Source of the DNA: Verrucomicrobiia bacterium
Lineage (GTDB): Bacteria > Acidobacteriota > Terriglobia > Bryobacterales > Bryobacteraceae
Direction of reading: 5' to 3'
Length of the DNA stretch: 64,000 bases
Assembly: GCA_035578025.1 (NCBI GenBank)
Contig: DATJYJ010000026.1
Location: 6,983 to 70,982, forward strand
In this document: positions 1,319 through 16,987 of the stretch, one piece after another
Numbering within the stretch: the stretch's first letter is position 1
How the letters are laid out: each line of letters starts with the position of its first letter
The notes under the pieces: generated by a model
Databases searched by the model: none
What the model saw: only the letters and a program-made list of their open reading frames with translations
What the model was told of the DNA's origin: nothing
Made by a program: the position numbers and the translations under genes

Positions 1319-2952
1319 AGCTCCGGAATCATCTCGTCGCGCGAGTTTTCGATGAGTCTCTCAACCGTCGCCATCAGCTCGTCCAGCCGCCGCCGCGCCT
1401 CCTTCTCCACATCCCACAGTGCGCTGTTTACGCTCTCCTCCCACTGGCTGCTCAATCGGCTGATGTTCTGATAGACCGCGCGCGGAATCGTCCGCGCAAA
1501 GTGCCGGCGAACCGTGGATCGGATTCCCCACACCGGCAAAACCGGAGAAAGCAGCTCCCAGTTGCGGTCGAAGATCCGGCCCGCGCGGATGTTTGGCGCC
1601 GCCGGCTCCCGGACTGCGATTTCTGTCTCCGTGGTTCGCAGCGGCACGCCGAACGCCCGCACCGTTCGCTCCGACAAGCGGTCCCGGAACTGTTGCAGCG
1701 CGCGGAAGGCCTGTTTCTGGACGTTGCGCAAGGGCTCGATGAACGCTCCCCGCTCTTCCACCGAAATCTCCGTCAGCTCGTTGCGCAGTGCCGCCGTCAG
1801 CCAGTCCTCAAATGAAGACAGCATTCGCGTGAGGCTTGCGGTCCACTCCGGAAAGTGGTTCTCGAAGTCGCGCCTCAGCGACGCCTCCAGTTCCCCCTGG
1901 TAGGTTTCCAGCCGGTCGCTCACCGCCGGACGGGTCCGGGCCGCGGCGTGCTGCACCACCAGCCGCACTTGCGCCTTCACCTCCTCGACGATTTCCTTCT
2001 CACCCAGCACCTGCTGCTTCAGTTCCTGGCGATCCGATTCGACTGCTTCCGCCGATTTCAGACTCAGGCTCAGATATTCGTTGCAGTCGCGCAGCAGCGT
2101 GTCCGTCTTTCGCGCCACGATGGATTCCCGCTCCCCGGCGAAGCGTTCCAGCGTTCCCCTCAGGAGCGTGGCTTCCAGCGCCTGCCTGAAGTGCTCGAAA
2201 CCCGCCTTCGTCGAGTACGGGAACACTTGCGGCGTCTCGGAGAGACGCTTCGCAAGCTGGGTACTGACGAATTCCACGACCTCGGCCAGCTCCGGACCGC
2301 TGAGCAGGTCCGCCTTCGTCAAGAGCACCGCCACCTTCGGCGTGTACTGATAGAGGCCTCTCAGCAGGTCGATGTCGCGCTGCGACAGCGGCGGGTCCAC
2401 GCTGACCGCGACCAGCGCGAGCCCCACGTTGGGAAGCCAGTTCAACGACGCTTGGGTGTTGTGAGTCAACGCGCTCTCCAACCCCGGCGTATCGACAAAC
2501 TTCAGGCCGCGGAAGCGGCGCAGCTCCGGCAGTCGCACCGAGACGAAATCCACCTGCTTGCTGTTCTCGGGATTTTCCCTTTCGGAGATGTACTCGCCGA
2601 TCTCCGACGGCGGAATCTCCCTGGTCTGCCCGTCCGTGTGCCGCACGCAAGCGCCTTCCCGGTCGCCATACCGGATCTCCGTCACCACTGCCGTGACCGG
2701 CACCACACCCACCGGGAGAATGCTCCGCCCGAAGAGGTCGTTCAGGAAGCTGCTCTTGCCTGCCTTGAACCTGCCCAGCACGGCGACGCTGATTTCCTCC
2801 TGTGCGGCCGCGGCCCTGGCCGTCACCAGCAGGCTGCTCAGCGCGGAAATCTCGTACCGCGCCGCAATTTCGGCAGCCAGTTCGAGCGCGGACTCCGAGC
2901 CGGAAAGGATTTCTTCTGATCGTTGTTGCTGGCCTTCTGTCTTCAGAATCAT
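1270..2952 (-). CDS. Bacterial dynamin-like GTPase (dynamin family large GTPase)
   Basis: P-loop GRFKAGKSSFLN, G3 DTPGLES and G4 LTKADLL, followed by a long helical C-terminal region. The start is set at the ATG at 2952 (MILKTEGQQQ). The ORF-track start at 2997 lies inside the riboswitch aptamer. Confidence 0.85.
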   Translation of the reverse strand: MILKTEGQQQRSEEILSGSESALELAAEIAARYEISALSSLLVTARAAAAQEEISVAVLGRFKAGKSSFLNDLFGRSILPVGVVPVTAVVTEIRYGDREGACVRHTDGQTREIPPSEIGEYISERENPENSKQVDFVSVRLPELRRFRGLKFVDTPGLESALTHNTQASLNWLPNVGLALVAVSVDPPLSQRDIDLLRGLYQYTPKVAVLLTKADLLSGPELAEVVEFVSTQLAKRLSETPQVFPYSTKAGFEHFRQALEATLLRGTLERFAGERESIVARKTDTLLRDCNEYLSLSLKSAEAVESDRQELKQQVLGEKEIVEEVKAQVRLVVQHAAARTRPAVSDRLETYQGELEASLRRDFENHFPEWTASLTRMLSSFEDWLTAALRNELTEISVEERGAFIEPLRNVQKQAFRALQQFRDRLSERTVRAFGVPLRTTETEIAVREPAAPNIRAGRIFDRNWELLSPVLPVWGIRSTVRRHFARTIPRAVYQNISRLSSQWEESVNSALWDVEKEARRRLDELMATVERLIENSRDEMIPELCADLERIARVRGRSN

Positions 2953-3024
2953 AGCTCTCGAGCAGTAGGAGCTATCATTCCTGAGCCGGAGGCCCAAGAC
3001 GGTTGATGGCGGGCTCCATCACCA
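2950..3024 (-). promoter_or_regulatory. Fluoride riboswitch (crcB RNA motif), copy 2, with a start-codon-occluding alternative hairpin
   Basis: The minus-strand RNA reads UGGUG AUGGAGCC CGCCA UCAACCG CUUGGGCC UCC GGCUCAGG AAUGAUAGCUCCUAC (3024->2965). P1 is UGGUG/CGCCA. Loop GGAGC is complementary to the 3' GCUCC (pseudoknot). The alternative hairpin AUAGCUC-N11-GAGCUAU (2975-2951) includes the A and U of the ATG at 2952. Confidence 0.8.
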
Positions 3025-3039
3025 ACGTACTAAAGTCTG

Positions 3040-3088: not shown

Positions 3089-4249
3089 CTACTCCGGGAT
3101 CTTCACGCCCATCTCAGCCAGTTTCTTCCGTGCAAACTCGTTTTTTGAATTCTGCTTCAGCGATAACAGGTAATACCGGACCGCCTCCTTCGTGTCGCCT
3201 CGTTTTTCGTAGGCGCGGGCGAGCGCGTCCAGTTGGTTCCACGAAGGCGGATAGGCTGTGCTGTCGTGAAGCAGGACCCTGGACGCCTCCTCCAAGCGTC
3301 CCGCGCCCACCAGGGCCGCGACCACCAGTGAGACCGTGAACCGCGGCGTGGTGCGCTCCGGATAGCCGAATCTCTTGCCCGACTCGCGAAACCGCCTGTG
3401 AATTGCCTCGATGCCGCCCTGATCGAATATCTCCAGCGGATCAGGCAGGCTCCATTCTTCGAAGATGGTCTCCACGCCGTGATAGATGCTCGGCAGCGGA
3501 ATCGACACGTGATTCTCCCGCGGCATCCAGTCGAACTTCCATCGGAATCCTGCGGGAGTTGACGCGGTGATTGCCGCGTGGCACCGGGCAACCTCGCTCG
3601 GAACCCTGCCCGATAGGTCGGTCGCGGCAATGTAGAGATCTGCCTGGAGAGATCCGCTGTGGGCAAAGAACGATTCGGCCTGCGCGACCACCGCCTGGTT
3701 GTTCCAGTACAGGCTGGGATCGGCGGCAATGTATCCGTTGAACAGCTTTGGCTGTGTGAGCAAGGCATAGACTGCGAACAGCCCGCCGAACGAATGGCCG
3801 GCGAGGAGCCGGTAGGGACGCGTGCGATACGTCCGCTCGACGTACGGGATGAGTTCGCCCCCCACAAATGACAGGAAGGCATCCGCTCCGCCGCTGCCCG
3901 GCGAGAAACGGTTGTCCACCTCGGCAGTCGAGGGTGGCGTCAGATCGTGCGTGCGCTTTTGAGAATCACCGCTGGCGATACCGACCACGATCATCGGGGG
4001 GATCCGGTCGGCCGTAGCCAGAAAATCCACGATCGCCGCCGTGTAGCGGAAATGCGTCTCGCCGTCCAGCAGGTACAGAACGGGATACCGGTCCGTGCCG
4101 GCGTCGTATTCGGCAGGCTTGGAAATGAACAGCCTTCGCGATTCCTTCAGGATCTCGGAGCGAAGTTGAATGGTAGTGCCGATGACGACCGGTTCTGCCT
4201 GAGACTGTGCCCGCGGGGCCAACAGTACGAGCAGGAGAGCAAGGCGCAT
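3089..4249 (-). CDS. Exported alpha/beta-hydrolase of the putative-esterase (enterochelin-esterase/IroE-like) family with a C-terminal TPR-like tail
   Basis: Signal peptide MRLALLLVLLAPRAQSQA. YPVLYLLDG and the nucleophile elbow GHSFGG are present. The C-terminus (ALARAYEKRGDTKEAVRYYLLSLKQN) looks TPR-like. Confidence 0.8.
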   Translation of the reverse strand: MRLALLLVLLAPRAQSQAEPVVIGTTIQLRSEILKESRRLFISKPAEYDAGTDRYPVLYLLDGETHFRYTAAIVDFLATADRIPPMIVVGIASGDSQKRTHDLTPPSTAEVDNRFSPGSGGADAFLSFVGGELIPYVERTYRTRPYRLLAGHSFGGLFAVYALLTQPKLFNGYIAADPSLYWNNQAVVAQAESFFAHSGSLQADLYIAATDLSGRVPSEVARCHAAITASTPAGFRWKFDWMPRENHVSIPLPSIYHGVETIFEEWSLPDPLEIFDQGGIEAIHRRFRESGKRFGYPERTTPRFTVSLVVAALVGAGRLEEASRVLLHDSTAYPPSWNQLDALARAYEKRGDTKEAVRYYLLSLKQNSKNEFARKKLAEMGVKIPE

Positions 4250-4276
4250 TGGGCAATCCTCCCGCAAGGAACGCTG

Positions 4277-5077
4277 TCACTCCCTATTGTGCTCCAGTCC
4301 TCCTGAACTGGCGAATTTGATGATCGTGTCGATTCGCAGTGGAGCAAATTTCACATGCCTTCCCGAGACATATTGCGGCTGGCTCGCGAGTCGGCACATT
4401 TCGATGATCTGGCCCGGATTGCCTCCCGCGCTCTCCAGCACTTTTTCCCGGAATTCCGGCAAATCGAGATGCCGCAGCCGGAAATTATCCGCCGCCGTTT
4501 CGAAAAGTTGCCCGGCCTCGCGGCCGTTGAGCCGCGAAACCGTGAGTACCTTCGTGGGATTCCAGAACAGCCTCGCCAGCACGCCCAGGCTCGCCGCGTC
4601 GCGGGAGGTCGCGAACAGCGCCATTCCGGGCGTGTGGTAGATCCGCTGCAGGAACCGGTAGGCGGCGAAACTTCCCCCCGCGATTCCATCGATCACCATC
4701 GCCTGCGGCGCATTCTCGATCGCGCGCCACAACAGGCCCTTCAGGCGAATGCTCCTCTGCGCCCGCAGCCATTCCTCCGAATCGCGGGGAAGTCCGGCGC
4801 GATCGAGGAAATCCCGTTGCTGTGCCGCGATCAGGGCTCGCGCCATCGCCATTAGCAGCGCATGGAGAGTCGGCTCCCAAGCGACGTAAAGAATTTCCGG
4901 CCGCTCCGCCATCGCTTCCCAAAGGAGTCGTGTCTTTCCGCTTCCCGCGGCGCCGAGCACCAGGAGCGGCTCTCGACCGGCCAATGCGCTGCGCAGGCGC
5001 GCGGTCTCCTTGGCCATCCCTACCAGCGCAAATTTCGGATTCATCTGCCTCGCATGGCCGCCCGCGCCCGGCATCAT
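4277..5077 (-). CDS. Compact P-loop AAA ATPase (AAA_16/ORC-like), function unknown
   Basis: Walker A LGAAGSGKTRLL, a Walker-B-like AMVIDGI, and a GGNPGQIIE motif reminiscent of the GNP motif in AAA_16/STAND-type ATPases. The ATG at 5077 is 1 nt from the antiporter stop. An alternative ATG is at 5044. Confidence 0.65.
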   Translation of the reverse strand: MMPGAGGHARQMNPKFALVGMAKETARLRSALAGREPLLVLGAAGSGKTRLLWEAMAERPEILYVAWEPTLHALLMAMARALIAAQQRDFLDRAGLPRDSEEWLRAQRSIRLKGLLWRAIENAPQAMVIDGIAGGSFAAYRFLQRIYHTPGMALFATSRDAASLGVLARLFWNPTKVLTVSRLNGREAGQLFETAADNFRLRHLDLPEFREKVLESAGGNPGQIIEMCRLASQPQYVSGRHVKFAPLRIDTIIKFASSGGLEHNRE

Positions 5078-5078
5078 G

Positions 5079-6281
5079 TCATTCGCTCCCGCCGGCTTCC
5101 TCCACCATCGTCAACCGCCGGACCGCCTCCGGTTTCGGCAGCAGGTGCTTGGGCATGAACCAGGCATTCGCCATCGCTGTTGGCACCACCGCGCTCGCAA
5201 TCACCGTGGCCACCAGGTGAGAGTATTGTCCGTCCGTGATGATCTTGTGGTTCAAGCCGAAAAGCGCGGATATCGTGCCGAAAGTCAGCCCCGTGGACAT
5301 CATCAGCGAGTAATACAGCCCCTGGTGGCCTTCGTGGTCGAACGCGCGGACCGTCGGCACCAGCGGAATCATCTTGGCGCTCATCTTCGCCGCGAACAAC
5401 AGCACGAAGACCATCGGCGTCGCGGCCAGCGCGGGCACGGACACCAGCGACCCCGCCCGGATGAAATAAAACGGCGTCAGCAGCCCGAATGTCAGAGTCC
5501 GCAGCCGGCGCACCAGAATGTGATCCTTCCCGATGGTACCCGCCAGAACCATCCCGATGATGTAAGCCGGCAGCACCGCCTCGCTCCCCGCCCACGCAGC
5601 CAGTCCGCCCATCCCGAAAAGAAGCAGCAGAATATACTTGGCCTCCAGTTCCGAGACGCGCCCTCCGTACTTGCCAAAGAACCAGGGCGTCACAAACGGC
5701 AGCGCCCCGAACACAATCACCGAGGCGCCGGCGAAGATCAGCGTCCGCACCGTGAACGGCGCAAAAATCAGCCCCAGCGCGATCACCGTTCCCAGATCGT
5801 TGACGAAACACGCCGCCAGAATTCCCTTCCCGAAATCGGTCCGATTCAGCCCCAGCTCCAGCATGACCGCGTAGACCACCGCAACCGACGTCGTGGAAAG
5901 TGCCACTCCCGCCAGCCAACTCGCCGGCAGCGACCACTTCAACACGAAATGCGCCAGGGCCGCCGCGCCCATGAAGGGACCGAAGAAGCCAACCAGGCCC
6001 ACGATCATGGCCTCCTTCCACTTCCTGCGGAAGATGCCCGGATCGAGTTCGGCGCCGGCCAGAAAAGTCAGCACGATCGCGCCCGTGCCTGCCAAAAAGC
6101 CGACCCACGCCGATTTTGCGCCGAGCACTTCGGTTCCGATCGCCGCGCCGATGATCAGTTGCGCCACCGTGCCCACCACGATTTCGGAGAGCGCCGTAGA
6201 AATGCGAAACCAGATCGACAACAGCGTCGCGATCAACGCCAGCACCAGCCACAATGCCGCTGAAAACCAGACCTGTTCCAT
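5079..6281 (-). CDS. Cation:proton antiporter (CPA2/Kef-type Na+/H+ or K+/H+ exchanger)
   Basis: 400-aa polytopic membrane protein with the typical N-terminus LSIWFRISTALSEIVVGTVAQL. AAGGAG lies upstream of the ATG at 6281. Confidence 0.9.
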   Translation of the reverse strand: MEQVWFSAALWLVLALIATLLSIWFRISTALSEIVVGTVAQLIIGAAIGTEVLGAKSAWVGFLAGTGAIVLTFLAGAELDPGIFRRKWKEAMIVGLVGFFGPFMGAAALAHFVLKWSLPASWLAGVALSTTSVAVVYAVMLELGLNRTDFGKGILAACFVNDLGTVIALGLIFAPFTVRTLIFAGASVIVFGALPFVTPWFFGKYGGRVSELEAKYILLLLFGMGGLAAWAGSEAVLPAYIIGMVLAGTIGKDHILVRRLRTLTFGLLTPFYFIRAGSLVSVPALAATPMVFVLLFAAKMSAKMIPLVPTVRAFDHEGHQGLYYSLMMSTGLTFGTISALFGLNHKIITDGQYSHLVATVIASAVVPTAMANAWFMPKHLLPKPEAVRRLTMVEEAGGSE

Positions 6282-6308
6282 ACCGGTCTCCTTGATTCGA
6301 ATTTCACC

Positions 6309-7865
6309 TTACCCGCGTTCCCAACCATCGCCTGCAGCCTCCCGCGCGCCGGGCGGCCCGAAGATCCGCCCGTACAGATCCTCTCCGAAGCTCGTCGGCA
6401 GTGGCTCTCCCGGCAGCATGCGAAACGTTCGTTGGCCGTCCGGGAGCCGCTCCGCTCGCAGGAATAGCGCCGTAGCCATGTTGGCCCGCACAAAGCCCCG
6501 CGCCAGGTCGAACAGGTGCGTCACGTAGAACACCTTGACTCCGCTTTCCAGCAGGGCGCGCACGATCTGCCGCGCAATCTCCGAGCCCTCTCTCTCGTTG
6601 GTCGAAGCAAATGATTCGTTGAACAGAACCAGGCTGTCCGCCGTCACCTCGCCGATGATCGAGCTCATCCTGCTCAGCTCTTCGTCCAGCTTGCCGCTCT
6701 TCATCGTCGTGTCTTCCTCGCGCTTGAAATGCGTAAAGACCCCGCGGCACACGTTCGCGCGGAAGTGCTCCGCCGGCACGAACATGCCGCATTGCATCAT
6801 CAGTTGGGCCGCCCCGGCGCTGCGCAGGAACGTCGACTTGCCGCCGCGATTCGCGCCCGTGACCATCACCAGCGCCTTGTCCTCCGCGGCCACGTCGTTG
6901 CCCGCAATCCTGCCGTCCATGCGCAAGGCCAGGCAGGGATCGTACAATCCCCGCGCCGTCAGCACCGCGCGCCCCGGCGCCAATGGTTCCGGAAACGAGA
7001 TCGGTCTGCCGCGCCTCGCAAGCTGCGTGCGCAAGTTCAGGCATCCGGCATAAAACCCGAGCTCCCATCGCAGCCTCTGGAAAAAGCTCAGGATGTGGTC
7101 GGTCGATTGCGAGAGCGCCGCGGCCACGTGGGCGATGCCCCTGTCCTCCAGTTCCGTCAGGGCCCGGAAGCCGCTTTCGTCGCGGTCCGCGATTTCATAG
7201 ATCAGCTCGCGCCCGTTCCCGCCGGTCAATTGGCGCGCCCAGTCCCTCAGCCTTTCCAGCCACGTTCGCCTCGCGATCAGACGTTTGCGAAGCACGTAGT
7301 TTGCGCCTCTGTGACCCGCGCCGAGCTCCGCCGTCATCAGAATCCCGTCGCGCAGTTGGAGACGTTCCAGGTGCTCCCCGGCCAGCGCCAGGTATTCGTC
7401 GTTCAACTCCCCGCTCAGCATCGCAAAGAACCTGGCGAACCCCTCCGATCGGAATTGCGGCCCCTCCTCGTCGGCGATCCTGCGCAGGCGCGCGAGCAGC
7501 TCCAGGAAAATCCCGAGCACTTCCACCGCCCGGTGCAGCGCCGCTCTCGGGCGGTCTCGCGACACCCAGCCCCACACCCGCCTCTCGCGCTCCAGTGCCT
7601 CCACCGCCGTGTCGTAGATTCTCCGCACAACCTCCGGACGCTCCAGGCAATCTTCCAGGATGCCTTGCCGGTAGAGAATGGCCTCCGGTTCCTCCATACT
7701 GCTCAGGAACGCTTGTCTGGCTACGTCGAGAAGGAACTCGTCCCCCGCCGCCATCGCGCCGAACAGAATCTCCAGTTCCAGGTCCTGCGTCAGCGCCGGC
7801 GCGTTGCGGAGCGTCCCGGTCGGCGGCCCGAAATCCCGGTCGCGGTAGAGCAGGAAGACTCTCAT
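6309..7865 (-). CDS. MutS-related ATPase (domains III/V only), paralog B
   Basis: Walker A TGANRGGKSTFLR and a MutS-type Walker B region SLVLFNESFASTNEREG. The start was trimmed to the ATG at 7865 (MRVFLLYRDRDF), which forms an ATGA overlap with the stop of paralog A. Confidence 0.85.
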   Translation of the reverse strand: MRVFLLYRDRDFGPPTGTLRNAPALTQDLELEILFGAMAAGDEFLLDVARQAFLSSMEEPEAILYRQGILEDCLERPEVVRRIYDTAVEALERERRVWGWVSRDRPRAALHRAVEVLGIFLELLARLRRIADEEGPQFRSEGFARFFAMLSGELNDEYLALAGEHLERLQLRDGILMTAELGAGHRGANYVLRKRLIARRTWLERLRDWARQLTGGNGRELIYEIADRDESGFRALTELEDRGIAHVAAALSQSTDHILSFFQRLRWELGFYAGCLNLRTQLARRGRPISFPEPLAPGRAVLTARGLYDPCLALRMDGRIAGNDVAAEDKALVMVTGANRGGKSTFLRSAGAAQLMMQCGMFVPAEHFRANVCRGVFTHFKREEDTTMKSGKLDEELSRMSSIIGEVTADSLVLFNESFASTNEREGSEIARQIVRALLESGVKVFYVTHLFDLARGFVRANMATALFLRAERLPDGQRTFRMLPGEPLPTSFGEDLYGRIFGPPGAREAAGDGWERG

Positions 7866-9487
7866 TCGCCCCGCCCCTCCCCGGCTTCCGGATCGAGACG
7901 CCGTTTGATGCCGTCGTACGTCAGGTTGTATTTCTCCGCGATCGCGATCGCATACGCCAGTCCATCGGCGAGCCGCCGCACAATCCGGAACGTCCGCATC
8001 GCCGGGTCGGCGGGATCGACGGTGCTGACCATGCTGACCGTGGTCGGGCTGAACGACGCCAGTTCGTCCAGGAACGTCACGGAAACGCACAGCATGTCCA
8101 GTTCGACCACCTGCCGCATGATCTCCCTGGTCAGGAACAAGGCATCGTCCAGCGTCGTGGAGAGGAAGCTCTCGTTCATGATCAGAATGCTGTTCGGAGT
8201 CGCGGCTTCCAGAATTCGCCGGATCCTCGTGAGATCCTCCTCCAGCTTGCTGCTCAGCGTCTCAATCGATTCCTCCCGTTCGAAATGTGTGAACAGCCTG
8301 TCGAACAGGAACAGCCTCGCTTCGCTGCCCGGAACGGGACAGCCGATGCTCGCCAGGTGATGCAGTTGGCCGAACATGCGCGCAAACGTCGTTTTCCCGC
8401 CTTGATTCGGCCCGCTGACGATGATGATTCGCTCGGGATCCTCCAGGTGAAAATCGTTCGTCACCACCCGCGCGTCCTCGCGCAGCAGCCGGTTCGCTAG
8501 GGCCAGGTCGAAGACGTCGCGCCCGTAAGCCTCCTTCGAATCCGCGGTCACAGCCGGGTAGCAGAAGCGCAGCCCCGTGCGCGCGAAGCGCTGCACGTGC
8601 TCGTGGCAAGCGAGATAGAACTGCGCCTCCCGGTCGAATTCGGCGATCGTGGCATCCAGGTATCCCCGGTGGCGGTCGCGGAAAGCCTCCAATTCCGCAA
8701 ACACGCCAGGAAACAGGAGCGCCACCCGGTCCAGGATGGCCGCCTCCACGTGGTTCATGTCCGCCGGCGCGCGGATCTCGAACCGATAGTCCTTCGGCGC
8801 GCCCTGCCTGAATTTCTCGAACGTCTGCAAGACTTCCGCCCCGTAGTCCGGCTCGTCGCCGTACCTTCCCACCTTGATTCGCTTGCCCTCGATCTCCAGC
8901 GAATAGGTGACGCCCGCCAGGCCGGCCCTGAGCTTTGCCGTTTCGTCGGCGAGCTCGCGGAACGGCGCCGACGTAGTGTAGTGCTGCAGATACTCGTGAA
9001 ATCCACGCAGTCCCCGGGAGCGCAGGCCGGCCGCCGCCAGCCCGGACGCCAGGCGGATCGCGGCCACGCAGTAGATGTCCACCGCATCCAGAAAGTAGCT
9101 CTGCTTCTGGCGTTCGTAATACAGTTTTTCCGCCTGCGTGAGCAAGGCCCGCATCCTCCGCATTTCCTCGCCGAACCAGCGGATCGGTTCGAGTACGCTT
9201 TTCTCCTCCAGGTCGCGCAGCACCTCCTGTCGATATCGGATCGTCGCGGCGTCGCGCAGCGGCGCACAAAAAAACGGCCTCAGGTTGTACTCCTCACGGC
9301 CAGCCGTGATCGCGTCCACAATCTGATCCAGGTTGAGATCCCGAAAATACTCCGGCGCCTCCGTACGATCGGCCTCCGCGCCCGGTTGCACATCTCCGAA
9401 CAGGATGCTCCGGAAGGATGCCGGATCGCGTCCCGCCAGCGTGGTCGCCTCTTGAGTCAAACGGAATCTGTGTGTATCCGTGTTCAT
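7862..9487 (-). CDS. MutS-related ATPase (domains III/V only), paralog A
   Basis: Walker A SGPNQGGKTTFAR and a Walker B region SILIMNESFLSTT. No N-terminal mismatch-binding motif or Smr/endonuclease tail was recognised. Confidence 0.85.
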   Translation of the reverse strand: MNTDTHRFRLTQEATTLAGRDPASFRSILFGDVQPGAEADRTEAPEYFRDLNLDQIVDAITAGREEYNLRPFFCAPLRDAATIRYRQEVLRDLEEKSVLEPIRWFGEEMRRMRALLTQAEKLYYERQKQSYFLDAVDIYCVAAIRLASGLAAAGLRSRGLRGFHEYLQHYTTSAPFRELADETAKLRAGLAGVTYSLEIEGKRIKVGRYGDEPDYGAEVLQTFEKFRQGAPKDYRFEIRAPADMNHVEAAILDRVALLFPGVFAELEAFRDRHRGYLDATIAEFDREAQFYLACHEHVQRFARTGLRFCYPAVTADSKEAYGRDVFDLALANRLLREDARVVTNDFHLEDPERIIIVSGPNQGGKTTFARMFGQLHHLASIGCPVPGSEARLFLFDRLFTHFEREESIETLSSKLEEDLTRIRRILEAATPNSILIMNESFLSTTLDDALFLTREIMRQVVELDMLCVSVTFLDELASFSPTTVSMVSTVDPADPAMRTFRIVRRLADGLAYAIAIAEKYNLTYDGIKRRLDPEAGEGRGE

Positions 9488-9659
9488 CTGTGGCTAATCC
9501 TTCCACCGCAAACTGCCAGGGATGTCCCTCGCACTCTGCGATGCTGCATCGCGGCGCGCGTCAGGCTGCCGGCGCGGCGTAGGGTTGCCAATGGACAAAG
9601 GACGGGCGAATGTGAGGTTCGAAGGTCTGGAAACCGGATAGATGTTGGGTCACGGCATG

Positions 9660-9731
9660 CTCCTTTCGAGTCGTACTCGTAGGAGTCATCTTCCCCGGGG
9701 ATTGGGGCGGTTGACGGTGGACTCCAACACC
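9660..9731 (-). promoter_or_regulatory. Fluoride riboswitch (crcB RNA motif), copy 1, with an SD-occluding alternative hairpin
   Basis: The minus-strand RNA reads GGUG UUGGAGUC CACC GUCAACCG CCCC AAUCCCC GGGG AAGAUGACUCCUAC (9731->9679). P1 is GGUG/CACC. Loop GGAGUC is complementary to the 3' GACUCC. The tail CUCCUA pairs with AGGAG of AAAGGAG in a hairpin spanning 9685-9660. Confidence 0.75.
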
Positions 9732-9743
9732 ACCTTCAAGGCC

Positions 9744-9773
9744 AGTATCCCAGGACGCTGCGTTGCGTGTCAA
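9744..9773 (-). promoter_or_regulatory. Sigma-70-like promoter for the riboswitch-1 transcript
   Basis: On the minus strand: TTGACA (9773-9768), an 18-nt spacer, then GATACT (9749-9744). The predicted TSS falls a few nt before riboswitch P1 at 9731. Confidence 0.5.
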
Positions 9774-9794
9774 CGCACGTCGTGCAACGTGCTT

Positions 9795-9820
9795 GGCGGA
9801 GTTTTCGATCGTGCTCCGCC
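9795..9820 (-). terminator. Hairpin downstream of the SOD gene (possible terminator)
   Basis: Inverted repeat GGCGGAG-N12-CTCCGCC starting 23 nt after the SOD stop. There is no U-tract, so the call is weak. Confidence 0.3.
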
Positions 9821-9842
9821 GCACACGGACGAGATCGCGCTC

Positions 9843-10529
9843 TCACTTCACGAGTTCTTCGTAGCGCGCGCTGATAAAGTCCCAGTTGATGACGCTCAGG
9901 ATCGCCTTGAGATATTCGGCGCGGCGGTTCTGGTATTTGAGATAGTAGGCGTGCTCCCAGACGTCGATGCCGAGCAGGGGCTGCCGGCCCGACATCAGGG
10001 GGCTGTCCTGGTTGGGTGCGGCGTCGAGCACGAGTTGTTTGCGGGAATCCAGAGAAAGCCACGCCCAGCCGCTCCCGAAAACGCCGGCGGCGTTGGTGCG
10101 CAGTTGCTCCTCGAACCGCTCGCGGCCCCCGAAGGAGCGTTCGAGCGCGGCCGCGAAGCTGCCGGAGGGCTTGCCGCTTTTTGCGGCCGGGCACAGCGTC
10201 TGCCAGAAGAGTGAATGGTTGGCGTGCCCGCCGCCCTGGTTCCTGACCGCGGTGCGAAGGTTGTCGGGCAGCGTGCCCACACCAAGCAGAAGTCGTTCGA
10301 CGGTCAAGCGGGACAGCGTCTCGTCCCCGGCGACGGCTTTGTTCAGGTTGTCCACGTACGCCTGGTGATGCTTGTCGTGGTGGATCTGCATGGTCTGCGC
10401 GTCGATGTAGGGCTCCAGGGCGTCGTACGCGTAAGGGAGCTTGGGCAATGTAAACGGTGGTTCGGCGGCGTCCACCGTGGCGGAGAAGGCGCTCAGGGCA
10501 GCCATCTCCATTAAGGTTCGTCGTGTCAT
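9843..10529 (-). CDS. Fe/Mn-family superoxide dismutase with a twin-arginine signal peptide
   Basis: HHDKHHQAYVDNLN and DVWEHAYYLKYQNRR are hallmark Fe/Mn SOD motifs. The N-terminus [21 protein letters not shown] looks like a TAT signal. The ATG forms an ATGA overlap with the stop of the upstream heme protein. Confidence 0.95.
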   Translation of the reverse strand: MTRRTLMEMAALSAFSATVDAAEPPFTLPKLPYAYDALEPYIDAQTMQIHHDKHHQAYVDNLNKAVAGDETLSRLTVERLLLGVGTLPDNLRTAVRNQGGGHANHSLFWQTLCPAAKSGKPSGSFAAALERSFGGRERFEEQLRTNAAGVFGSGWAWLSLDSRKQLVLDAAPNQDSPLMSGRQPLLGIDVWEHAYYLKYQNRRAEYLKAILSVINWDFISARYEELVK

Positions 10530-12121
10530 TCGAGTACCTCTCTATTCGTTCGAGCAACCGTGCCGTGACCCTCTAGCACGACGAAGTGCCCGGACTGGCC
10601 GTGCCGCACATGGCGCGGCGGCGCCGCCGCGGAATGGACCGCGGGACGCGCGAAGGGATCCGAAAACCGCGGGTCGGTGAGCACCGTCCGGTCGGTCAGC
10701 GCATTCAGAAACGCGAGCAGTTCGCCTTCCTCCTGTCTGCTCAGCTCGAACGGCTTGACGAACTCGCTCTTGTTCGGATTCTCCGCGCCCACCCCGGCAT
10801 TCGGCCCGGATTTGATGGTGCGGCCGCCAGTGCGGTAATGCGATACCACGTCTGCCAGCGTCCGAATGCTGCCATCGTGCATGTACGGCGCGGTCACAGC
10901 GATGTTGCGCAGCGTGGGCGCCTTGAACTTGCCGACATCTTCTTCCTGGTGGGTGAAATCATAGAGCCCGAGGTTGGGGGGCGGATAGGAATACTTCCCA
11001 TTCACGTTGTAGAGGCCGGTATTGTGGAACTCGACCTCGGCGAAGCCCTTGTCCAGGTAGTCCACCGTCCCGGTGAAATTGAAGCCGCCGTGGCAGTGGA
11101 AGCATTCCAGGCGCTCGCTGAAGAATAGCGCCTCGCCGCGCTTCGCCGATTCGGAAATGGCAGCAGGATCGTCGCCGTTGCGGTAGTGATCATACGGCGA
11201 ATCGCCCGAGAGAATGGTGCGTTCGAAGCTGGCGATCGCCTGCGTGACCGAACGAATCGTGAACGGATCGGCCTGCGATGGGAACGCCGCGGCGAAGAGT
11301 TTCCGGTAGCGAGCGTCGCTCTTCAGCCGCCCGATCAGGACATCTTCCTTGCCCGCCATTCCCAGCTCCACCGGGTTCTCGCCGAAGAGCGGCACCAGCG
11401 CCTGCCCTTCCAGCGTACGCACCAGCGGATTGGCCCACGTGAGCACCGGGCTGTACGCCACGTTCACCAGGCTCATCGGTCCGCGAGGGTGAAGTTCACC
11501 GGTAGACCCCAGCCCGCGCGCCCGCCCGTCGCTAAACGCCTTCTCCTGACGGTGACAGGTGGCGCACGCCTGCGTCTGGTTGAGCGAGAGCCGCTTGTCG
11601 TAAAAGAGATACCGGCCCAGTTCCACCTTCTCCGCCGTCATCGGATTGTCCGCGGGAACGTTGGGAAGCGGGAATCCGGGAGGCAGACTCCACTCGTACG
11701 GACCCAGCTTTTCCTTCTCGGCCGCCTTTTGCACAAGCCTGAGGTGGCGGACGTATTGAACCAGTTGCCAGCGCTCAGTCTCGCTAAGTTGATCGCCGAA
11801 AGCCGGCATGTTGCCCGGGATACCGTGGCTGACCACCCAGTAGATCTCGCCGTCGCGCATGGATTCCATAAGGTATTCGGTCAGGTTGGTCGGCCGCACC
11901 GGAAGTTTGGCGGCCGCCGGCGTGCGCCCTTTGCCATCGTCGCCGTGACATCCGGCGCAACGGCGCCCGTAGACAGGCTGCGCGGCGGCAGCCTGCTCCG
12001 CGGTGAAAGCCAACGGAGATTTCAGTAGCCGCGCTTCCGGCGGCGCGCTCGAGTGGCCGTGTGCGTCGTGCGCGTGGCACAGCCCGCCGCCGAAGCAGAA
12101 CAGAAGCGCCAGCTTGTTCAT
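10526..12121 (-). CDS. mbnH: MbnH-like di-heme cytochrome c peroxidase/MauG-family enzyme with an extra N-terminal cytochrome c domain (three CxxCH)
   Basis: Trimmed to the ATG at 12121 ([12 protein letters not shown] signal). CxxCH motifs are CAGCH, CATCH and [27 protein letters not shown] is typical of the CCP/MauG/MbnH family. Confidence 0.8.
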
Positions 12122-12125
12122 ACCC

Positions 12126-12995
12126 TCAGTTCCCGGCCGCCGCAGAGCGCTTGTCATCGGACGCTGCAGCCTTGCGGAAAAAGGACTGCCTGCCGGCCGA
12201 ATGGCCGGCGAAGGGCAGCCCCAGGTTGGCGAATAGCGGCGCGCAATCGCCGTCCTCCGGGCTGGACATGCAACCAAGAGCGGTTTTCGGCTGGTTCGTG
12301 TCGATGTTGGAATCCTTGAGCAGCGCCGCCAGATCCGCCACCACCACGTCGCTCCGCGCGTCGAACCCGGCCAGTTCCACATCCACGCGGTTCGGCTCGC
12401 TGCACTGAACCGGCGGCGCGGTCTTGTTCTCGTTCGGCGTGCAGCCGGTGCTGCCCAGGTGGATCGCGTATCCGCGCGGCTGGCCGGTGCTCGCAAAATC
12501 CAGGCGCGCAAACTTCCGCCCCGCGTTCCACACCCAGGCGAGCGCCGTGAGATTGAGCGGCGGAGGCTGCGTCGTCAGGTCGGTGTGGTTCTTATTGAAA
12601 GGCACGCCAAGAGTGAAGCGGAGGCCCGTATAATGGCCGGCCGGAACCGTGCCCGTGACCCGGTCGTTGACATCCGGGGTGCCGTTTACGCAGCCGCCGG
12701 TGGCGTCTTCGAAATCCAGTAGCGCGACATCGTCCAACTGCCACCTGCCGTCCTGGCTGAACTGGAGCGGAACGCTCTTGCCCGAATCGTCGATCAGCGC
12801 CACGTTGTGCACGTAGAAGCGGAAGTCGCGTGGCGCCAGCGTGGACGCCGTCGTGCCGATTCCAGGGTACGTCCGCCCGCAGGCGAACTTCTCACTGCCA
12901 ACCATCGCTTGAAAACGGACGGTCACCTGCTGGTCGGCCGCCCAAACGCCGCCCTCCGCTGACAGGAGAGCCGCAAGGATCATCGTTAACTTCAT
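12126..12995 (-). CDS. mbnP: MbnP-like periplasmic copper-binding protein (metallo-mystery pair partner)
   Basis: Trimmed to the ATG at 12995 (MKLTMILAALLSAEGGVWA signal). It has conserved-looking Cys pairs and FYVHNVALID and LRFTLGVPF segments as recalled for MbnP/TIGR04052. It sits immediately upstream of the MbnH-like gene (4-nt gap). Confidence 0.7.
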   Translation of the reverse strand: MKLTMILAALLSAEGGVWAADQQVTVRFQAMVGSEKFACGRTYPGIGTTASTLAPRDFRFYVHNVALIDDSGKSVPLQFSQDGRWQLDDVALLDFEDATGGCVNGTPDVNDRVTGTVPAGHYTGLRFTLGVPFNKNHTDLTTQPPPLNLTALAWVWNAGRKFARLDFASTGQPRGYAIHLGSTGCTPNENKTAPPVQCSEPNRVDVELAGFDARSDVVVADLAALLKDSNIDTNQPKTALGCMSSPEDGDCAPLFANLGLPFAGHSAGRQSFFRKAAASDDKRSAAAGN

Positions 12996-13081
12996 AGGAG
13001 GTCTCTTTCGACAAACTGCAATCCAGTCCGCGCGGCGAAATTCCTCGGAATGATGCCTCCGCAGGTCACGCGGTCCTCTTC

Positions 13082-14146
13082 TCACCTCAGGCGGCGAATC
13101 TGCACGGCGCCGTCCTCTTCCCACGCAGCCAGCACCCCGCCGCCAGGCAACGCGGTCAGCGAAGGGAACGCTCCGGCGCTCGAGAGCCGTTCCACCTTGC
13201 CGTCGATCCACACGTCCACGTTCGCCCCCTCGACCCAGGCCACGTACGCGCGCTCGCCGCTGAGAGCAAGCGCCACGTCCTTGCCCGTGCCGATTTGCCG
13301 CTCCGGCCGCCCCGCTTCATCGAGGAAGACGTTGCCTTCGCGCCGCCATGCCGTGACGATCCGCGTCGCCGACACCGCGAGGCCTCCTCCATCCATCGGA
13401 CATGCGTTCAGCGGCCACGTCCCGTTGCCGAGCTTGTGGGGAGCCGGGAAATTCACACCGTCGCGAGACGTCGCCAGGTACAGGTCCCGGCAGCCATTCA
13501 AAGAGTTGCGCCACATCGCCACGAATTCGCCTCCGGGCGAGATCGCCGCCAAAGGATGACAGCACTCGCAGATCGAGCCGCCGGGCGATTCATAGACCTG
13601 GACATTCGCCGCCCACGTGACGCCGCCGTCGCTCGAGCGCGAGGAGTAAAGCCTGGTGCCCTTCCCGCCGCGCTTGTCCAGCCACACCGCAAACAGCGTG
13701 CTCCCGCCATCCGAGGCCAGGCCATGCAGGCCCTCGCTCGCCGAACCCGGGACATCGTTAATCGCCTTGGCGGTCGACCAGGTCGTTCCGCCGTCCTGCG
13801 AGCGCCACACCAGCAGGTCGCCGTCGGCAGGAAGGCCGTGGGCGTGCGCGCCCTCCTGCGGCCGGCTGCCCGCCACCGCGGTAATCACGATCGTGCGTCC
13901 GGACAGCGCGATGCGTGGCCCGCGGTGCCGGCTCAGCGGAACGATCCCCGCCCCGGCAACCTTGGTCGGCGGCGCAAACGTGCTTCCGCCGTCGCGCGAG
14001 GAGCTGAAGTAGATGGCGTTACCCGCTCCGAAAGCCATCGCCACCATCGACGAATTGGCCGCCATCTGCGGTTCGCGCGCCGGCGCCTCCGGACCCATCG
14101 GGCCGAGATGTGCGGCCGCCGCGGCATAAAGAAGTAGCGGAATCAT
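13082..14146 (-). CDS. BNR/Asp-box repeat protein (sialidase-like beta-propeller)
   Basis: Four Asp-boxes: SSRDGGSTF, SQDGGTTW, SSDGGVTW and TSRDGVNF. GGGAGGG lies upstream of the ATG. Confidence 0.8.
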   Translation of the reverse strand: MIPLLLYAAAAAHLGPMGPEAPAREPQMAANSSMVAMAFGAGNAIYFSSSRDGGSTFAPPTKVAGAGIVPLSRHRGPRIALSGRTIVITAVAGSRPQEGAHAHGLPADGDLLVWRSQDGGTTWSTAKAINDVPGSASEGLHGLASDGGSTLFAVWLDKRGGKGTRLYSSRSSDGGVTWAANVQVYESPGGSICECCHPLAAISPGGEFVAMWRNSLNGCRDLYLATSRDGVNFPAPHKLGNGTWPLNACPMDGGGLAVSATRIVTAWRREGNVFLDEAGRPERQIGTGKDVALALSGERAYVAWVEGANVDVWIDGKVERLSSAGAFPSLTALPGGGVLAAWEEDGAVQIRRLR

Positions 14147-14158
14147 GAGCCCTCCCTG

Positions 14159-16987
14159 TCAAAACCGGAACCGCAGGGCGAATTGCAGCGACCTTGCGTC
14201 GTTCACCGCGGTGATCTGCTTGAATGTCGGCGCCGGATTCGTCGGGTACGCCCCCGTGCCGAATACCCCGTTCAACGTCACGCCGTTGAGATGGTTGGTA
14301 AGATTGAAACCTTCGGCCAGCAACTCCATGCGGAGCCGCTCGGACAGGTGGAAACTACGGCTGAGGCGCGCGCTCAGGCCCAGAAAGTCGAATCCCGATC
14401 CGGCGTTGCGGTTGATGAACACCCCGTCGATGGTCGGCCGCGCCGCGGTTCCCTGGACGGTGTTGGCGCCCGTCGTGATGTTGAACGGCAGCGGCGAGTA
14501 GTACTGCAGCATCGCGGTCAGCTCGAACCCCCGGGCAACCCGCTGCCATCCGCGGTTCGCTCCGCCCGCCGGCGCGTGGACCGTGCCTTCCAGGACGAAC
14601 CGGTGGCGTTGATCGTCGTCCGAGCGGCCGTAGTCCTGCCAGATATTGTATTGGTTGACGGGTGTGCTGAAAAAGAACTCGCCCACGTTGTTGAGCGATT
14701 TCGAAAACGTGTAAGAGATGCGATAGTTGCCCCAGGCGGCCGGCCGTTGCACGAAGGAGACGTGCAGGCCGTCATAGTGCGAATCGGCCAGTGAAGAATA
14801 CTGGCTGTTGTTGCCGTACGCCGCGTTCGGACGGCACCCGTTGTTGGTTCCTGAGGCGGTGCAGGTAGGCACATTCTGGTTGATCGAAACGATCAGGTGC
14901 AGGCCGCGGACATGCTGGTAACCGGCGCTCAGCGTGCTGCGCGCGCCCATCTGCTGCTCGATCTCGAAACTGCCCTGCTCCGAATACGCGTTCTGCATGT
15001 GCGGATCCATGGTGCTGAAGTTGAACAGTACCCCCGGCGGCAGCGTCAGGCTCGAGAGAATGTTCGGAAACACCGGCGCGCCCGCCTGGGCCGGCGAAAG
15101 GCTCACGCTGATCTGGCTCAAGTGGCCGGGATCCGTCGTGTTGTTCGCCGAAAGCAGCGCGTTCGCCAGCGCGCGCAGGGGAATGCGGTCGTAGAACAGC
15201 CCGAAACCGCCGCGGATCACTGTCTTCCCCGATCGGAACGGAGTCCACGCGAATCCCGCACGCGGCGACACGTTGTTGGTATCGGTGGCGATGCCCCGCA
15301 GGTACTGCAAATCGTACCGCACGCCCACATTCAAGGTCAGGCGCGGGGCCGCCTTCCATTCGTCCTGCGCGTAGAACCCCACGTTGGGATTCGTCTGGGC
15401 AACCACGCTGTTCGCGAACGTCTGGGTGAAACCCGAAGCGTTGTAGGTCCCGCTCAGAAAGTTCGCCAGCGACGAAAACGCGTAGCTCCCCCGCGCCGAT
15501 CGCGGGAACGTGATCGTGTCGTCGTTGTACAGGAAATCCGTCCCCACCCGGATGGCGTGCGCGCCCGCCTGGTAGGACAGGTTGTCCGCGATTTCGCCCA
15601 GCCGGTTCAATCGTCCCGTCGGCGACCCCGACAACGTGCCGAACGAAGCCACTCCCGAAATGCTCACCGCCGGCCCGATCGGATCGGATGGCGGAGCCTT
15701 CAGGTCGCTGTTGGTGAACTGCCCGTGCGTCTCGTTCACCAGGTGCGTGGAAAAGGTCGCGATGTTGCTCACCGCCACGCTCTGATCGGTGTCGTCCAGG
15801 TTCGCCGAAGCCGTGGGCGCGCTCAGGCCTCCCGCGCCGCGCGAGTTGATCGCCGTAACGTGGTAGAGGCTGTAGCGGATGCTCGCCTGGTCCTTCTGGC
15901 TGAACTGGTGGTCGGCCTTGGCGAACAGATTCGTATTGTGTACGGGATTGGGGTAAATGCCCGTGGAGATCTGCGGACCCGGGTATCCCACCGCCGTGAG
16001 CCTGGCGTTGATGGCCGCCACGTTGGCCGGCGTGATCGTGGTCAGGCCGGACTGGTTCAGTTCCCGCTGCTCGAAGTTCACAAAATAGAACGTCCGGTCG
16101 CGCACGATAGGACCGCCCAGGCTGGCGCCGTACTGCGCCTGCGTCAGCGGCAGCGCCATCTGGGCCAGGGGATTGGCCGCGTTGAAACGCTGATTGCGGA
16201 AATAGCCGTACAGATCCCCGTGCAGCGTATTGGTGCCGCTGCGGGTCACCACGTTGACGTATCCGCCCAGCGCGCGTCCCAGCTCCGCCTGCCCGCCGGA
16301 GGTCACCACCTGCAGCTCGCTCACCACGTCTAGGCCGTAGAACGCTCCCGTCAGCCCGGCCGCGTCGTCGTTGTTCGACAGGCCGTCCACGATGAAGCTG
16401 TTCGAGAAATTCCGCTGGCTGCCGATTGAGATCCCCTGTCCCGGCACCGCCGAGGTCTCCGCGAAAAGCTGGTTGCTTGCCGTGTTGGTGGGAGATACCC
16501 CGGGAATCAACAGCGCCAGGTCCAGGAAGCTGCGCCCGTTCAGCGGGAGAGAGCGCACTTCGCTCTGCGATACCGTGCCCGCCACCTGGGTCCGCGCCGT
16601 CTCCAGCAGGTCCGCCTGGCCGTTCACCGTGACCACGCTCTCCGACGATGCCACGCCGAGTTCCACCGGGAGCTCGAATGCCGACCCCGCCTGCACCAGG
16701 ACGGTGCGCACGGCCTCCGCGAATCCGGGCCGCTGCACCCGGATCTCGTATGGGCCCACGCTCAGGTACGCAAAGCGAAACCGTCCGTCCTTGTCGGTGA
16801 GCTGCGCGTTGCCGATGTTGGTGTCACCGTTGCGGGCAGTGACCTTCGCGCCCTGAATCACCGCGCCGCTCGCGTCCTCCACGCGGCCGCTGATACTCCC
16901 GTATTGGATCGATTCCTGTGCGGCCGCCGTGATCACCCCAAGCAGCAGGAAACAAATGTAGACAGAAAACCTCACCCTCTGTAACAT
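14159..16987 (-). CDS. TonB-dependent outer-membrane receptor with an N-terminal carboxypeptidase-regulatory-like domain
   Basis: GSISGRVEDASGAVIQGAKVTA...GRFRFAYLSVGPYEIRV, then a plug and barrel, with a C-terminal ...LQFALRFRF. The start is set at the ATG at 16987 (MLQRVRFSVYICFLLLGVITAAAQE) with GAGGA upstream. The track start at 17002 is a GTG. Confidence 0.9.
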   Translation of the reverse strand: MLQRVRFSVYICFLLLGVITAAAQESIQYGSISGRVEDASGAVIQGAKVTARNGDTNIGNAQLTDKDGRFRFAYLSVGPYEIRVQRPGFAEAVRTVLVQAGSAFELPVELGVASSESVVTVNGQADLLETARTQVAGTVSQSEVRSLPLNGRSFLDLALLIPGVSPTNTASNQLFAETSAVPGQGISIGSQRNFSNSFIVDGLSNNDDAAGLTGAFYGLDVVSELQVVTSGGQAELGRALGGYVNVVTRSGTNTLHGDLYGYFRNQRFNAANPLAQMALPLTQAQYGASLGGPIVRDRTFYFVNFEQRELNQSGLTTITPANVAAINARLTAVGYPGPQISTGIYPNPVHNTNLFAKADHQFSQKDQASIRYSLYHVTAINSRGAGGLSAPTASANLDDTDQSVAVSNIATFSTHLVNETHGQFTNSDLKAPPSDPIGPAVSISGVASFGTLSGSPTGRLNRLGEIADNLSYQAGAHAIRVGTDFLYNDDTITFPRSARGSYAFSSLANFLSGTYNASGFTQTFANSVVAQTNPNVGFYAQDEWKAAPRLTLNVGVRYDLQYLRGIATDTNNVSPRAGFAWTPFRSGKTVIRGGFGLFYDRIPLRALANALLSANNTTDPGHLSQISVSLSPAQAGAPVFPNILSSLTLPPGVLFNFSTMDPHMQNAYSEQGSFEIEQQMGARSTLSAGYQHVRGLHLIVSINQNVPTCTASGTNNGCRPNAAYGNNSQYSSLADSHYDGLHVSFVQRPAAWGNYRISYTFSKSLNNVGEFFFSTPVNQYNIWQDYGRSDDDQRHRFVLEGTVHAPAGGANRGWQRVARGFELTAMLQYYSPLPFNITTGANTVQGTAARPTIDGVFINRNAGSGFDFLGLSARLSRSFHLSERLRMELLAEGFNLTNHLNGVTLNGVFGTGAYPTNPAPTFKQITAVNDARSLQFALRFRF

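Follow-up and report, generated by a model that had tools for sequence, protein, structure and literature searches.

We analysed a stretch of 64,000 nucleotides (hereafter, the window) from contig DATJYJ010000026.1 of the acidobacterial assembly GCA_035578025.1, and found that an RNA element on its minus strand, at positions 9673-9740, is, going by its covariance-model match, a member of the fluoride riboswitch family RF01734. The element lies upstream of a pair of genes encoding MutS-like ATPases (MutS-like A and B), and we consider it probable that it acts as a fluoride-dependent ON switch of the operon that they head. Its predicted target, however, is not the start codon of MutS-like A: the riboswitch appears to act directly on a short upstream open reading frame (uORF), and no more than indirectly on the MutS-like pair. 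For comparison, we collected 80 genome loci and 80 metagenome loci carrying homologues of MutS-like A, to which the locus labels (L-numbers) below refer. The features of the window are listed in Table 1.

The whole window was scanned against the 4227 families of Rfam 15. A match to RF01734 (gathering score 34) at 9673-9740 (-), scoring 37.9 bits (E = 6.5e-7) and covering the full model (1-64/64), was the sole match above any Rfam gathering score. At E <= 1 the scan returned just two matches, this aptamer and a second one at 2959-3032 (-), with no third aptamer and no other RNA family in the window even at that threshold. A covariance model of our own (R1) gave the 9673-9740 aptamer 66.5 bits. 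The minus-strand RNA from 9731 to 9679 reads GGUG-UUGGAGUC-CACC-GUCAACCG-CCCC-AAUCCCC-GGGG-AAGAUGACUCCUAC, exactly as quoted in an earlier, sequence-only reading of this DNA. That reading had named the element a fluoride riboswitch, with a GGUG/CACC P1 helix, a P1-loop GGAGUC complementary to a 3' GACUCC, and a UCAACCG junction identical to that of the other copy; the covariance model recovers the element above its gathering score, the helices are borne out by the model match and by the alignment described below, and the junction is indeed common to both copies.

To evaluate the pairing, we used a clade alignment of the window and ten relatives (11 sequences). All 154 pair cells of P1, P2 and the pseudoknot form standard pairs, three of them changed on both sides, with compensatory changes at one pair in P1 and one pair in P2; when the structure was slid by 1-3 columns as a control, only 42-60% of the cells paired. 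The pseudoknot is 100% paired yet nearly invariant within the clade, and is therefore without covariation evidence. Of the unpaired consensus nucleotides (GAUGG, AACCG and CUGAUGACUCCUAC), the AACCG and GAUGACUCCUAC cores are intact in the window aptamer. The element resembles the crcB motif described by RF01734 in having P1, P2, the two cores and a pseudoknot that joins the P1 loop to the 3' tail, in an expression platform that competes for the 3' pseudoknot strand, and in its place in the 5' untranslated region of fluoride-regulon genes, which include mutS-like genes and cation/proton antiporters. It differs in its subtype features (GUUGG, GGGGAAGAUGA and a G-A at the base of P2, with a score near the Rfam threshold), in lacking an intrinsic terminator, and in that its gated start codon opens a uORF and not the cargo gene. 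We infer that the window aptamer binds fluoride.

The sequence-only reading had also assigned the riboswitch a promoter of its own, TTGACA-18-GATACT. This proved to be the only sigma-70-like site in 9300-10000, where shuffled sequences lead to an expectation of 0.1, and its position is conserved in the clade. In a footprint of 17 clade sequences, in which the best -35/-10 pair was scored out of 12, this pair scored 10 in 16 sequences and 9 in L046, and was positioned just 5' of P1 in all 17 (8-14 nt in 16 of them, 21 nt in L059). The -35 element is TTGACA, TTGACC or TTGACT in 17 of 17, and the clade form of the promoter can be written as TTGACA, a 17-18-nt spacer and (G/C/A)ATACT or a near variant. 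The sequence around these promoters is not alignable, whereas the promoter position is kept. This phylogenetic footprint supports a sigma-70-type promoter belonging to the riboswitch itself, from which transcription would start near 9738-9736, a few nt before P1.

We then turned to the expression platform. The hairpin that the sequence-only reading had proposed to hide a Shine-Dalgarno element was found as part of the minimum-free-energy fold of 9745-9470. This OFF hairpin alone has a predicted energy of -13.6 kcal/mol and the pseudoknot duplex alone -8.3 kcal/mol; since both need nucleotides 9685-9682, the switching sequence, the two are mutually exclusive. When the pseudoknot strands were blocked, to imitate the bound state roughly, the predicted probability of being unpaired rose from 0.20 to 0.39 for the Shine-Dalgarno and from 0.07 to 0.28 for the GTG start that follows it. 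The same anti-pseudoknot design (CUCCU, a variable stem and xGGAG) was seen in 35 distinct platforms, including those of distant lineages, in which the hairpin is followed by a start codon 3-9 nt on or by a U-run. No U-run follows the window hairpin, so the window copy appears to be, by design, a translational ON switch; the ON direction would be the one proposed when the crcB motif was first described (PMC2864571). A scan of 9300-10000 found no intrinsic terminator, and a transcription-terminator platform was ruled out for the window copy because none follows the aptamer.

From the aptamer end (9679) to ATG 9487 the leader runs for 191 nt, in agreement with the roughly 190 nt given in the sequence-only reading; what has to be amended is the destination of the hidden Shine-Dalgarno, which serves GTG 9653, the start of the uORF, and not ATG 9487. 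The latter is the first possible start of MutS-like A, with an in-frame TAG two codons upstream, and the 30-codon uORF is in a different frame. Because the hidden AAAGGAG serves GTG 9653, out of frame with ATG 9487, it is the uORF that is predicted to be under direct control of the riboswitch. An ATG at 9658, 1 nt after AAAGGAG, would yield M-P-stop only.

Comparison with sister loci suggests how this arrangement arose. The uORF start is homologous to the MutS-like start in these loci, with the same 6-nt spacing and often an AUGCCA context. There, the gated start opens the MutS-like gene directly (L006, L007, L008, L014, L019, L081, L127, L150, L161 and L163), and in six lineages, with L046/L100 counted once, it opens a non-conserved uORF of 30-55 codons (Table 1). 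The uORF peptides have nothing in common beyond Met-Pro, which rules out a functional conserved leader peptide, and blastn finds the leader only in the window and in L001, which rules out a repeat or mobile element. L001 is a contig (DATJYW010000181.1) of a Candidatus Acidiferrales metagenome-assembled genome (MAG) that is 99.04% identical to the window over 5665-15487. Since sister loci use the homologous start for the MutS-like gene, and the leader has no homologue outside L001, the long leader is, as these alignments have it, a lineage-specific insertion of ~165 nt between an ancestral gated start codon and the gene body.

Of note, short open reading frames were seen in further loci as well. 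In L135, L142 and L147 (about 2330-2500) one lies between the aptamer platform, which it follows immediately, and the MutS-like gene, and begins MT(S/F)FE..., resembling the MutS-like N-terminus; in L138 and L145 one follows the aptamer, before the MutS-like gene, and its peptide is conserved, MG(I/T)D(H/Q)KHQNEGLRRFSG....

We propose that the system works as follows. Without fluoride, the 3' tail CUCCU would pair with AGGAG in the hairpin 9689-9657 and bury AAAGGAG. With fluoride, the pseudoknot GGAGUC/GACUCC would capture the tail, AAAGGAG would be freed and ribosomes would start at GTG 9653. Translation of the uORF would then relay the signal to ATG 9487, by covering a C-rich tract of the Rho-loading type, by opening a predicted helix in which the uORF pairs with the MutS-like start, or by both. 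The output would be an operon presumably comprising MutS-like A, MutS-like B, a CPA2 antiporter, an AAA_16 ATPase and an esterase. Features of the leader bear on both routes. The uORF tract is rich in C (40%) and poor in G (19%), with a C/G ratio of 2.1-2.3 over 78-nt intervals at 9660-9563 versus about 0.8-1.0 nearby, and since this composition is the one preferred for Rho loading, an untranslated leader could be terminated. In addition, the predicted fold pairs uORF nucleotides 9605-9581 with the MutS-like start region 9501-9478 (pairing probability 0.68), and ATG 9487 has a predicted probability of 0.04-0.11 of being unpaired. We rate the specific uORF relay to the MutS-like gene at an even chance or somewhat below.

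A comparable arrangement is found in the Salmonella mgtA leader, where mgtL forms part of a leader-ORF (open reading frame)/Rho attenuator coupled to a riboswitch. There, and in the window on the model proposed here, a sensor RNA within a long leader determines whether a short ORF is translated, which affects read-through into the gene downstream; a C-rich tract is present in the leader. The two differ in ligand and aptamer, and the role of Rho is putative here; moreover, the window-type uORF derives from the ancestral start of the cargo, and sister lineages couple the uORF to the cargo (ATGA).

Several observations speak against parts of this account. The pseudoknot-mimic fold liberates the Shine-Dalgarno only in part, and the OFF hairpin is 90.9% paired in the clade but shows zero covariation. 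Outside the window and L009, the bias towards C is not clear. The helix between the uORF and the MutS-like start is not conserved, its pairing probability falling to 0.002 in L005 and 0.25 in L009; we rejected it as a conserved feature and keep it as a possibility for the window only. The aptamer departs from the Rfam consensus at three places (GAUGG to GUUGG, CUGAUGA to AAGAUGA, and a G-A at the P2 base), and its nearest relatives of the same variant, L003, L005 and L009, score under the Rfam gathering score. Lastly, and weakening the case for the relay in the window, 74 nt separate the end of the window uORF from ATG 9487, a start codon with a Shine-Dalgarno-like GGAAGGA of its own, and L003 carries ACG where the AUG of the uORF would be, and so is without a canonical uORF start.

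These last points, together with the lack of conservation among the uORF peptides and the C-rich tract in the leader, would fit an explanation in which the uORF is an untranslated or irrelevant relic, control is exerted by the leader fold (through Rho termination or RNA decay), and ATG 9487 is used constitutively from GGAAGGA. We regard this as unlikely, albeit the strongest of the alternatives, since 6 of 7 independent long-leader lineages keep a start codon that follows the gated Shine-Dalgarno at 6-9 nt and opens a frame of at least 30 codons, whereas the chance of a start codon in such a stretch is, by rough estimate, ~25% per lineage. Furthermore, the uORF ends at or near the MutS-like start in three of these lineages: in L046/L100 the MutS-like ATG overlaps its stop codon, and the gap between its end and the MutS-like ATG is 32 nt in L162 and 10 nt in L166, two loci whose ATG, by eye, is preceded by CUCCU and not by a Shine-Dalgarno. 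This suggests that, in these lineages, the uORF may deliver ribosomes to the MutS-like gene.

Alternatively, the ~165 nt of extra leader could hold an additional cis-regulatory RNA, so far unrecognised, through which a further signal is combined with fluoride. The leader does fold better than its shuffles (z = -2.29), and short motifs such as UUCGAACCUC recur, by eye, in the window, L003 and L162. In addition, the 355 nt of promoter, aptamer and leader show 0 differences between the window and L001, whereas MutS-like A has 1.4 per 100 nt and the superoxide dismutase gene 2.5; this hints weakly that the leader is constrained over its whole length. However, at 1% divergence 0 in 355 is about a 1-in-30 event (rough Poisson estimate), no further Rfam match appears at E <= 1, blastn returns no leader homologue outside L001, and the predicted structures differ among relatives, all of which make a second RNA quite improbable.

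As for the aptamer itself, its departures from the consensus are common to the whole clade in the alignment, so the window aptamer reads as a clade-specific subtype rather than a decaying copy. The same-subtype aptamers of L003, L005 and L009 (GGUGUUGGAGUCC...GGGGAAGAUGACUCCU), missed by Rfam, score 51-61 bits with our own model, and this acidobacterial subtype is probably under-annotated. An aptamer that has decayed, or been retuned to another ligand, with no response to fluoride, is the least probable of the alternatives: two consensus positions do differ, the score clears the gathering threshold by just 3.9 bits and the sister copies fall short of it, but the subtype is conserved clade-wide with every helix intact and compensatory changes, the pseudoknot and both cores are intact, promoter and expression platform are conserved, and the gene contexts (CPA2, CrcB, DUF190) are of the fluoride type.

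Table 1. Features of the window and of compared loci (window positions unless a locus is named)
Feature	Position	Strand	Remarks
-35 box TTGACA	9773-9768	(-)	promoter scan and clade conservation
-10 box GATACT	9749-9744	(-)	18-nt spacer, TG upstream, 12 nt before P1
fluoride riboswitch aptamer	9673-9740, core 9731-9679	(-)	RF01734 and R1 model
P1 hairpin, 4 bp	GGUG 9731-9728 / CACC 9719-9716	(-)	loop UUGGAGUC
5' pseudoknot strand GGAGUC	9725-9720	(-)	in P1 loop UUGGAGUC
P2 hairpin, 4 bp	CCCC 9707-9704 / GGGG 9696-9693	(-)	Rfam alignment, clade alignment, fold
3' pseudoknot strand GACUCC	9687-9682	(-)	6 bp with GGAGUC
OFF-state hairpin covering Shine-Dalgarno	9657-9689	(-)	AUG/CAU, CUCCU 9685-9681 / AGGAG 9664-9660, CGAGU 9679-9675 / ACUCG 9671-9667
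Shine-Dalgarno AAAGGAG	9660-9666	(-)	6 nt before GTG 9653, usual clade spacing
uORF, window	9561-9653	(-)	30 codons: GTG + 29 codons + TGA (9563-9561); ends 74 nt before MutS-like ATG; encodes MTQHLSGFQTFEPHIRPSFVHWQPYAAPAA
MutS-like A, 541 aa	7862-9487	(-)	MutS domains III-V only, Walker A GPNQGGKTT, Walker B position N-E
MutS-like B, 518 aa	6309-7865	(-)	ATG overlaps A stop (ATGA)
CPA2 cation/proton antiporter (Na_H_Exchanger)	5079-6281	(-)	starts 27 nt after B end
AAA_16-like ATPase	4277-5077	(-)	start abuts antiporter stop; 28.2 bits, below Pfam cut-off 32.6
esterase + TPR protein	3089-4267	(-)	last gene of tightly packed five-gene unit
second fluoride aptamer	2959-3032	(-)	Rfam 33.1 bits (gathering score 34), own model 48.3 bits
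dynamin-like GTPase, 560 aa	2952-1270	(-)	behind second aptamer
CrcB	1318-902	(-)	Pfam CRCB 94 bits
double DUF190 protein	986-159	(-)	behind second aptamer
Fe/Mn superoxide dismutase	9843-10529	(-)	directly upstream of riboswitch promoter
di-haem cytochrome c peroxidase	10526-12511	(-)	upstream of superoxide dismutase gene
MbnP-like protein	12126-13211	(-)	oxidative-stress or copper-related cluster
same-subtype aptamer, L003	5676-5727		missed by Rfam, all helices intact
same-subtype aptamer, L005	3588-3638		missed by Rfam, all helices intact
same-subtype aptamer, L009	5686-5736		missed by Rfam, all helices intact
uORF, L005			46 codons; ends 49 nt before MutS-like ATG
uORF, L009			32 codons; ends 92 nt before MutS-like ATG
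uORF, L046 / L100			30 codons; stop overlaps MutS-like ATG (ATGA)
uORF, L162			55 codons; ends 32 nt before MutS-like ATG
uORF, L166			42 codons; ends 10 nt before MutS-like ATG

In order to characterise the cargo, we examined the two MutS-like proteins. A and B are paralogous, their ATPase domains being 34% identical; in A this domain starts near residue 335, and Pfam recognises MutS_V alone in both (E = 2.4e-16 and 2e-21). A is not a MutS1: at 541 aa, it has neither the mismatch-binding domain I nor the connector domain II in Pfam, and both proteins lie far under the NCBIfam thresholds for MutS1, the MutS models giving 57-67 bits versus cut-offs of 480-642. Nor is the pair of the MutS2 type, there being no Smr match and TIGR01069 giving 62.5 and 70.9 bits versus a cut-off of 400; the top sequence match is the ATPase domain of a MutS2 (7vuf_B, E = 7.6e-16). 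An AlphaFold model of A (pLDDT 72, pTM 0.72) aligned in Foldseek over ~500 columns with the core, clamp and ATPase of MutS/MutSbeta (E = 3.5e-14, probability 1.00, TM-score about 0.5), and on account of this alignment the model identifies A as a domain III-V MutS without mismatch-binding and connector domains. The pair shares the core, clamp and ABC ATPase fold with MutS2 and with MutS paralogues that lack the mismatch-binding domain, but differs from them in that no domain I, II or Smr was detected, in being an obligate A/B pair, and in carrying Asn for Asp in the Walker B motif of both subunits.

This last substitution concerns the MutS Walker B aspartate, which is asparagine in A (IMNESF, N438, codon 8174-8176) and in B (LVLFNESF). 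In E. coli MutS, D693 is the Walker B aspartate that coordinates Mg2+, and D693N lowers Mg2+/ATP affinity and uncouples the two ATPase sites (PMC2857095). Both N438 and the adjoining E439 are invariant in 43 homologues of A. Fluoride, in the form of a magnesium-fluoride complex, is known to poison phosphoryl-transfer sites, and for this reason the altered Mg2+ site is suggestive in a predicted fluoride-induced ATPase. Two other identities were considered and rejected: similarity to the KamC reactivase is confined to the ATPase domain and far under the cut-off, and, as to an anti-phage defence system, PADLOC matched neither the MutS-like pair nor the AAA_16 protein nor the esterase.

Looking at the surrounding genes, we found two riboswitch units in the window, which together make up a fluoride island of about 9.6 kb: the MutS-like pair and the CPA2 antiporter lie downstream of the first aptamer, and the second aptamer is found with CrcB in the same island. 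The 3' tail of the second aptamer, AUAGCUC (2975-2969), can pair, by eye, with GAGCUAU (2957-2951), covering AUG 2952. In 29 of the 80 genome loci, a dynamin-family GTPase such as the one encoded there lies no further than 6 kb from the MutS-like pair, often behind a fluoride aptamer of its own (L004, L010, L015, L055 and L074 are among these dynamin-linked loci). In L164, L167 and L168 (1-1516) the GTPase gene ends at the start of MutS-like A, so GTPase, A and B would form one operon. Against PADLOC, the dynamin-like protein of the window showed weak LeoA/LeoBC similarity only. A homologue of the AAA_16 protein lies behind its own aptamer in L007 and L008. On the other side of the riboswitch promoter, the oxidative-stress or copper-related cluster at 9843-13211 (-) has no detected aptamer of its own.

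The association of aptamer and MutS-like pair extends well beyond the window. Homologues of A are 51-98% identical across the 80 genome loci, which span Acidobacteriota, Chloroflexota, Actinomycetota, Proteobacteria, Bacillota, Thermotogota and one Bathyarchaeota MAG, and of 70 informative loci 69 have B following A. With our own covariance model (E < 0.01) we found 122 aptamers in 60 of the 80 genome loci; an aptamer lies on the same strand, at most 700 nt upstream of A, in 42 of the 80. In L054, from the culturable Thermoanaerobacterium butyriciformans DSM 101588, no aptamer was detected within 6 kb. Among the metagenome loci, 38 of 80 have an aptamer within 1000 nt upstream of A. Rfam, applied at its gathering score to 11 loci, detected 20 aptamers and placed one directly upstream of A in 8 of the 11.

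Some of these loci are particularly rich in riboswitches. Four to five fluoride aptamers occur within about 13 kb in L073 (which has five), L009, L015, L018, L021, L032 and L077, and in such multi-riboswitch islands the aptamers often form divergent pairs 100-250 nt apart. In two divergent pairs, the minus-strand aptamer (L161 1229-1274; L163 1270-1315) faces a gene for pyruvate phosphate dikinase (PPDK_N, PEP-utilizers), an enzyme that could supply phosphoenolpyruvate when fluoride inhibits enolase. L024 carries an M-box (Mg2+) riboswitch (RF00380, 113.8 bits) at 1550-1728 (+), about 4 kb upstream of its fluoride-riboswitch/MutS-like unit.

The sequence-only reading had noted that mutS genes were among those associated with the crcB motif, and rightly so: they were listed at its first description (Weinberg 2010, PMC2864571). 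A full-text literature search found no paper explaining a role of MutS-like or dynamin proteins in fluoride stress, and none in which 'fluoride riboswitch' and 'dynamin' occur together. As such, the riboswitch is no novelty: Rfam detects it, and its mutS link has been in print since 2010. Only two things go beyond the textbook, the gating of a uORF and the nature of the cargo. We know of no description of a uORF-gating platform for the fluoride riboswitch class.

Taken together, these results allow a joint reading, which we offer tentatively and hold to be possible rather than probable, that in an acidobacterial clade the riboswitch has been uncoupled from its cargo and gates a uORF relay, through coupling or Rho shielding, while the cargo is an uncharacterised fluoride-stress nucleoside triphosphatase (NTPase) machine. 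The MutS-like proteins may constitute such a machine, and not an enzyme of DNA mismatch repair, as an obligate A/B pair with a Walker B Asn, above 50% identity across many phyla and a frequent place in the same operon as dynamin-like GTPases. The riboswitch marks this very widespread and highly conserved MutS-like ATPase pair as a member of the fluoride regulon. The family has a clear signature: its proteins consist of domains III-V alone, are encoded as an A/B gene pair, carry Asn in place of the Walker B Asp and are often linked to dynamin-like GTPases. The sister loci, in which one gated start drives either the gene or a uORF, represent a natural series for a translational riboswitch acting at a distance.

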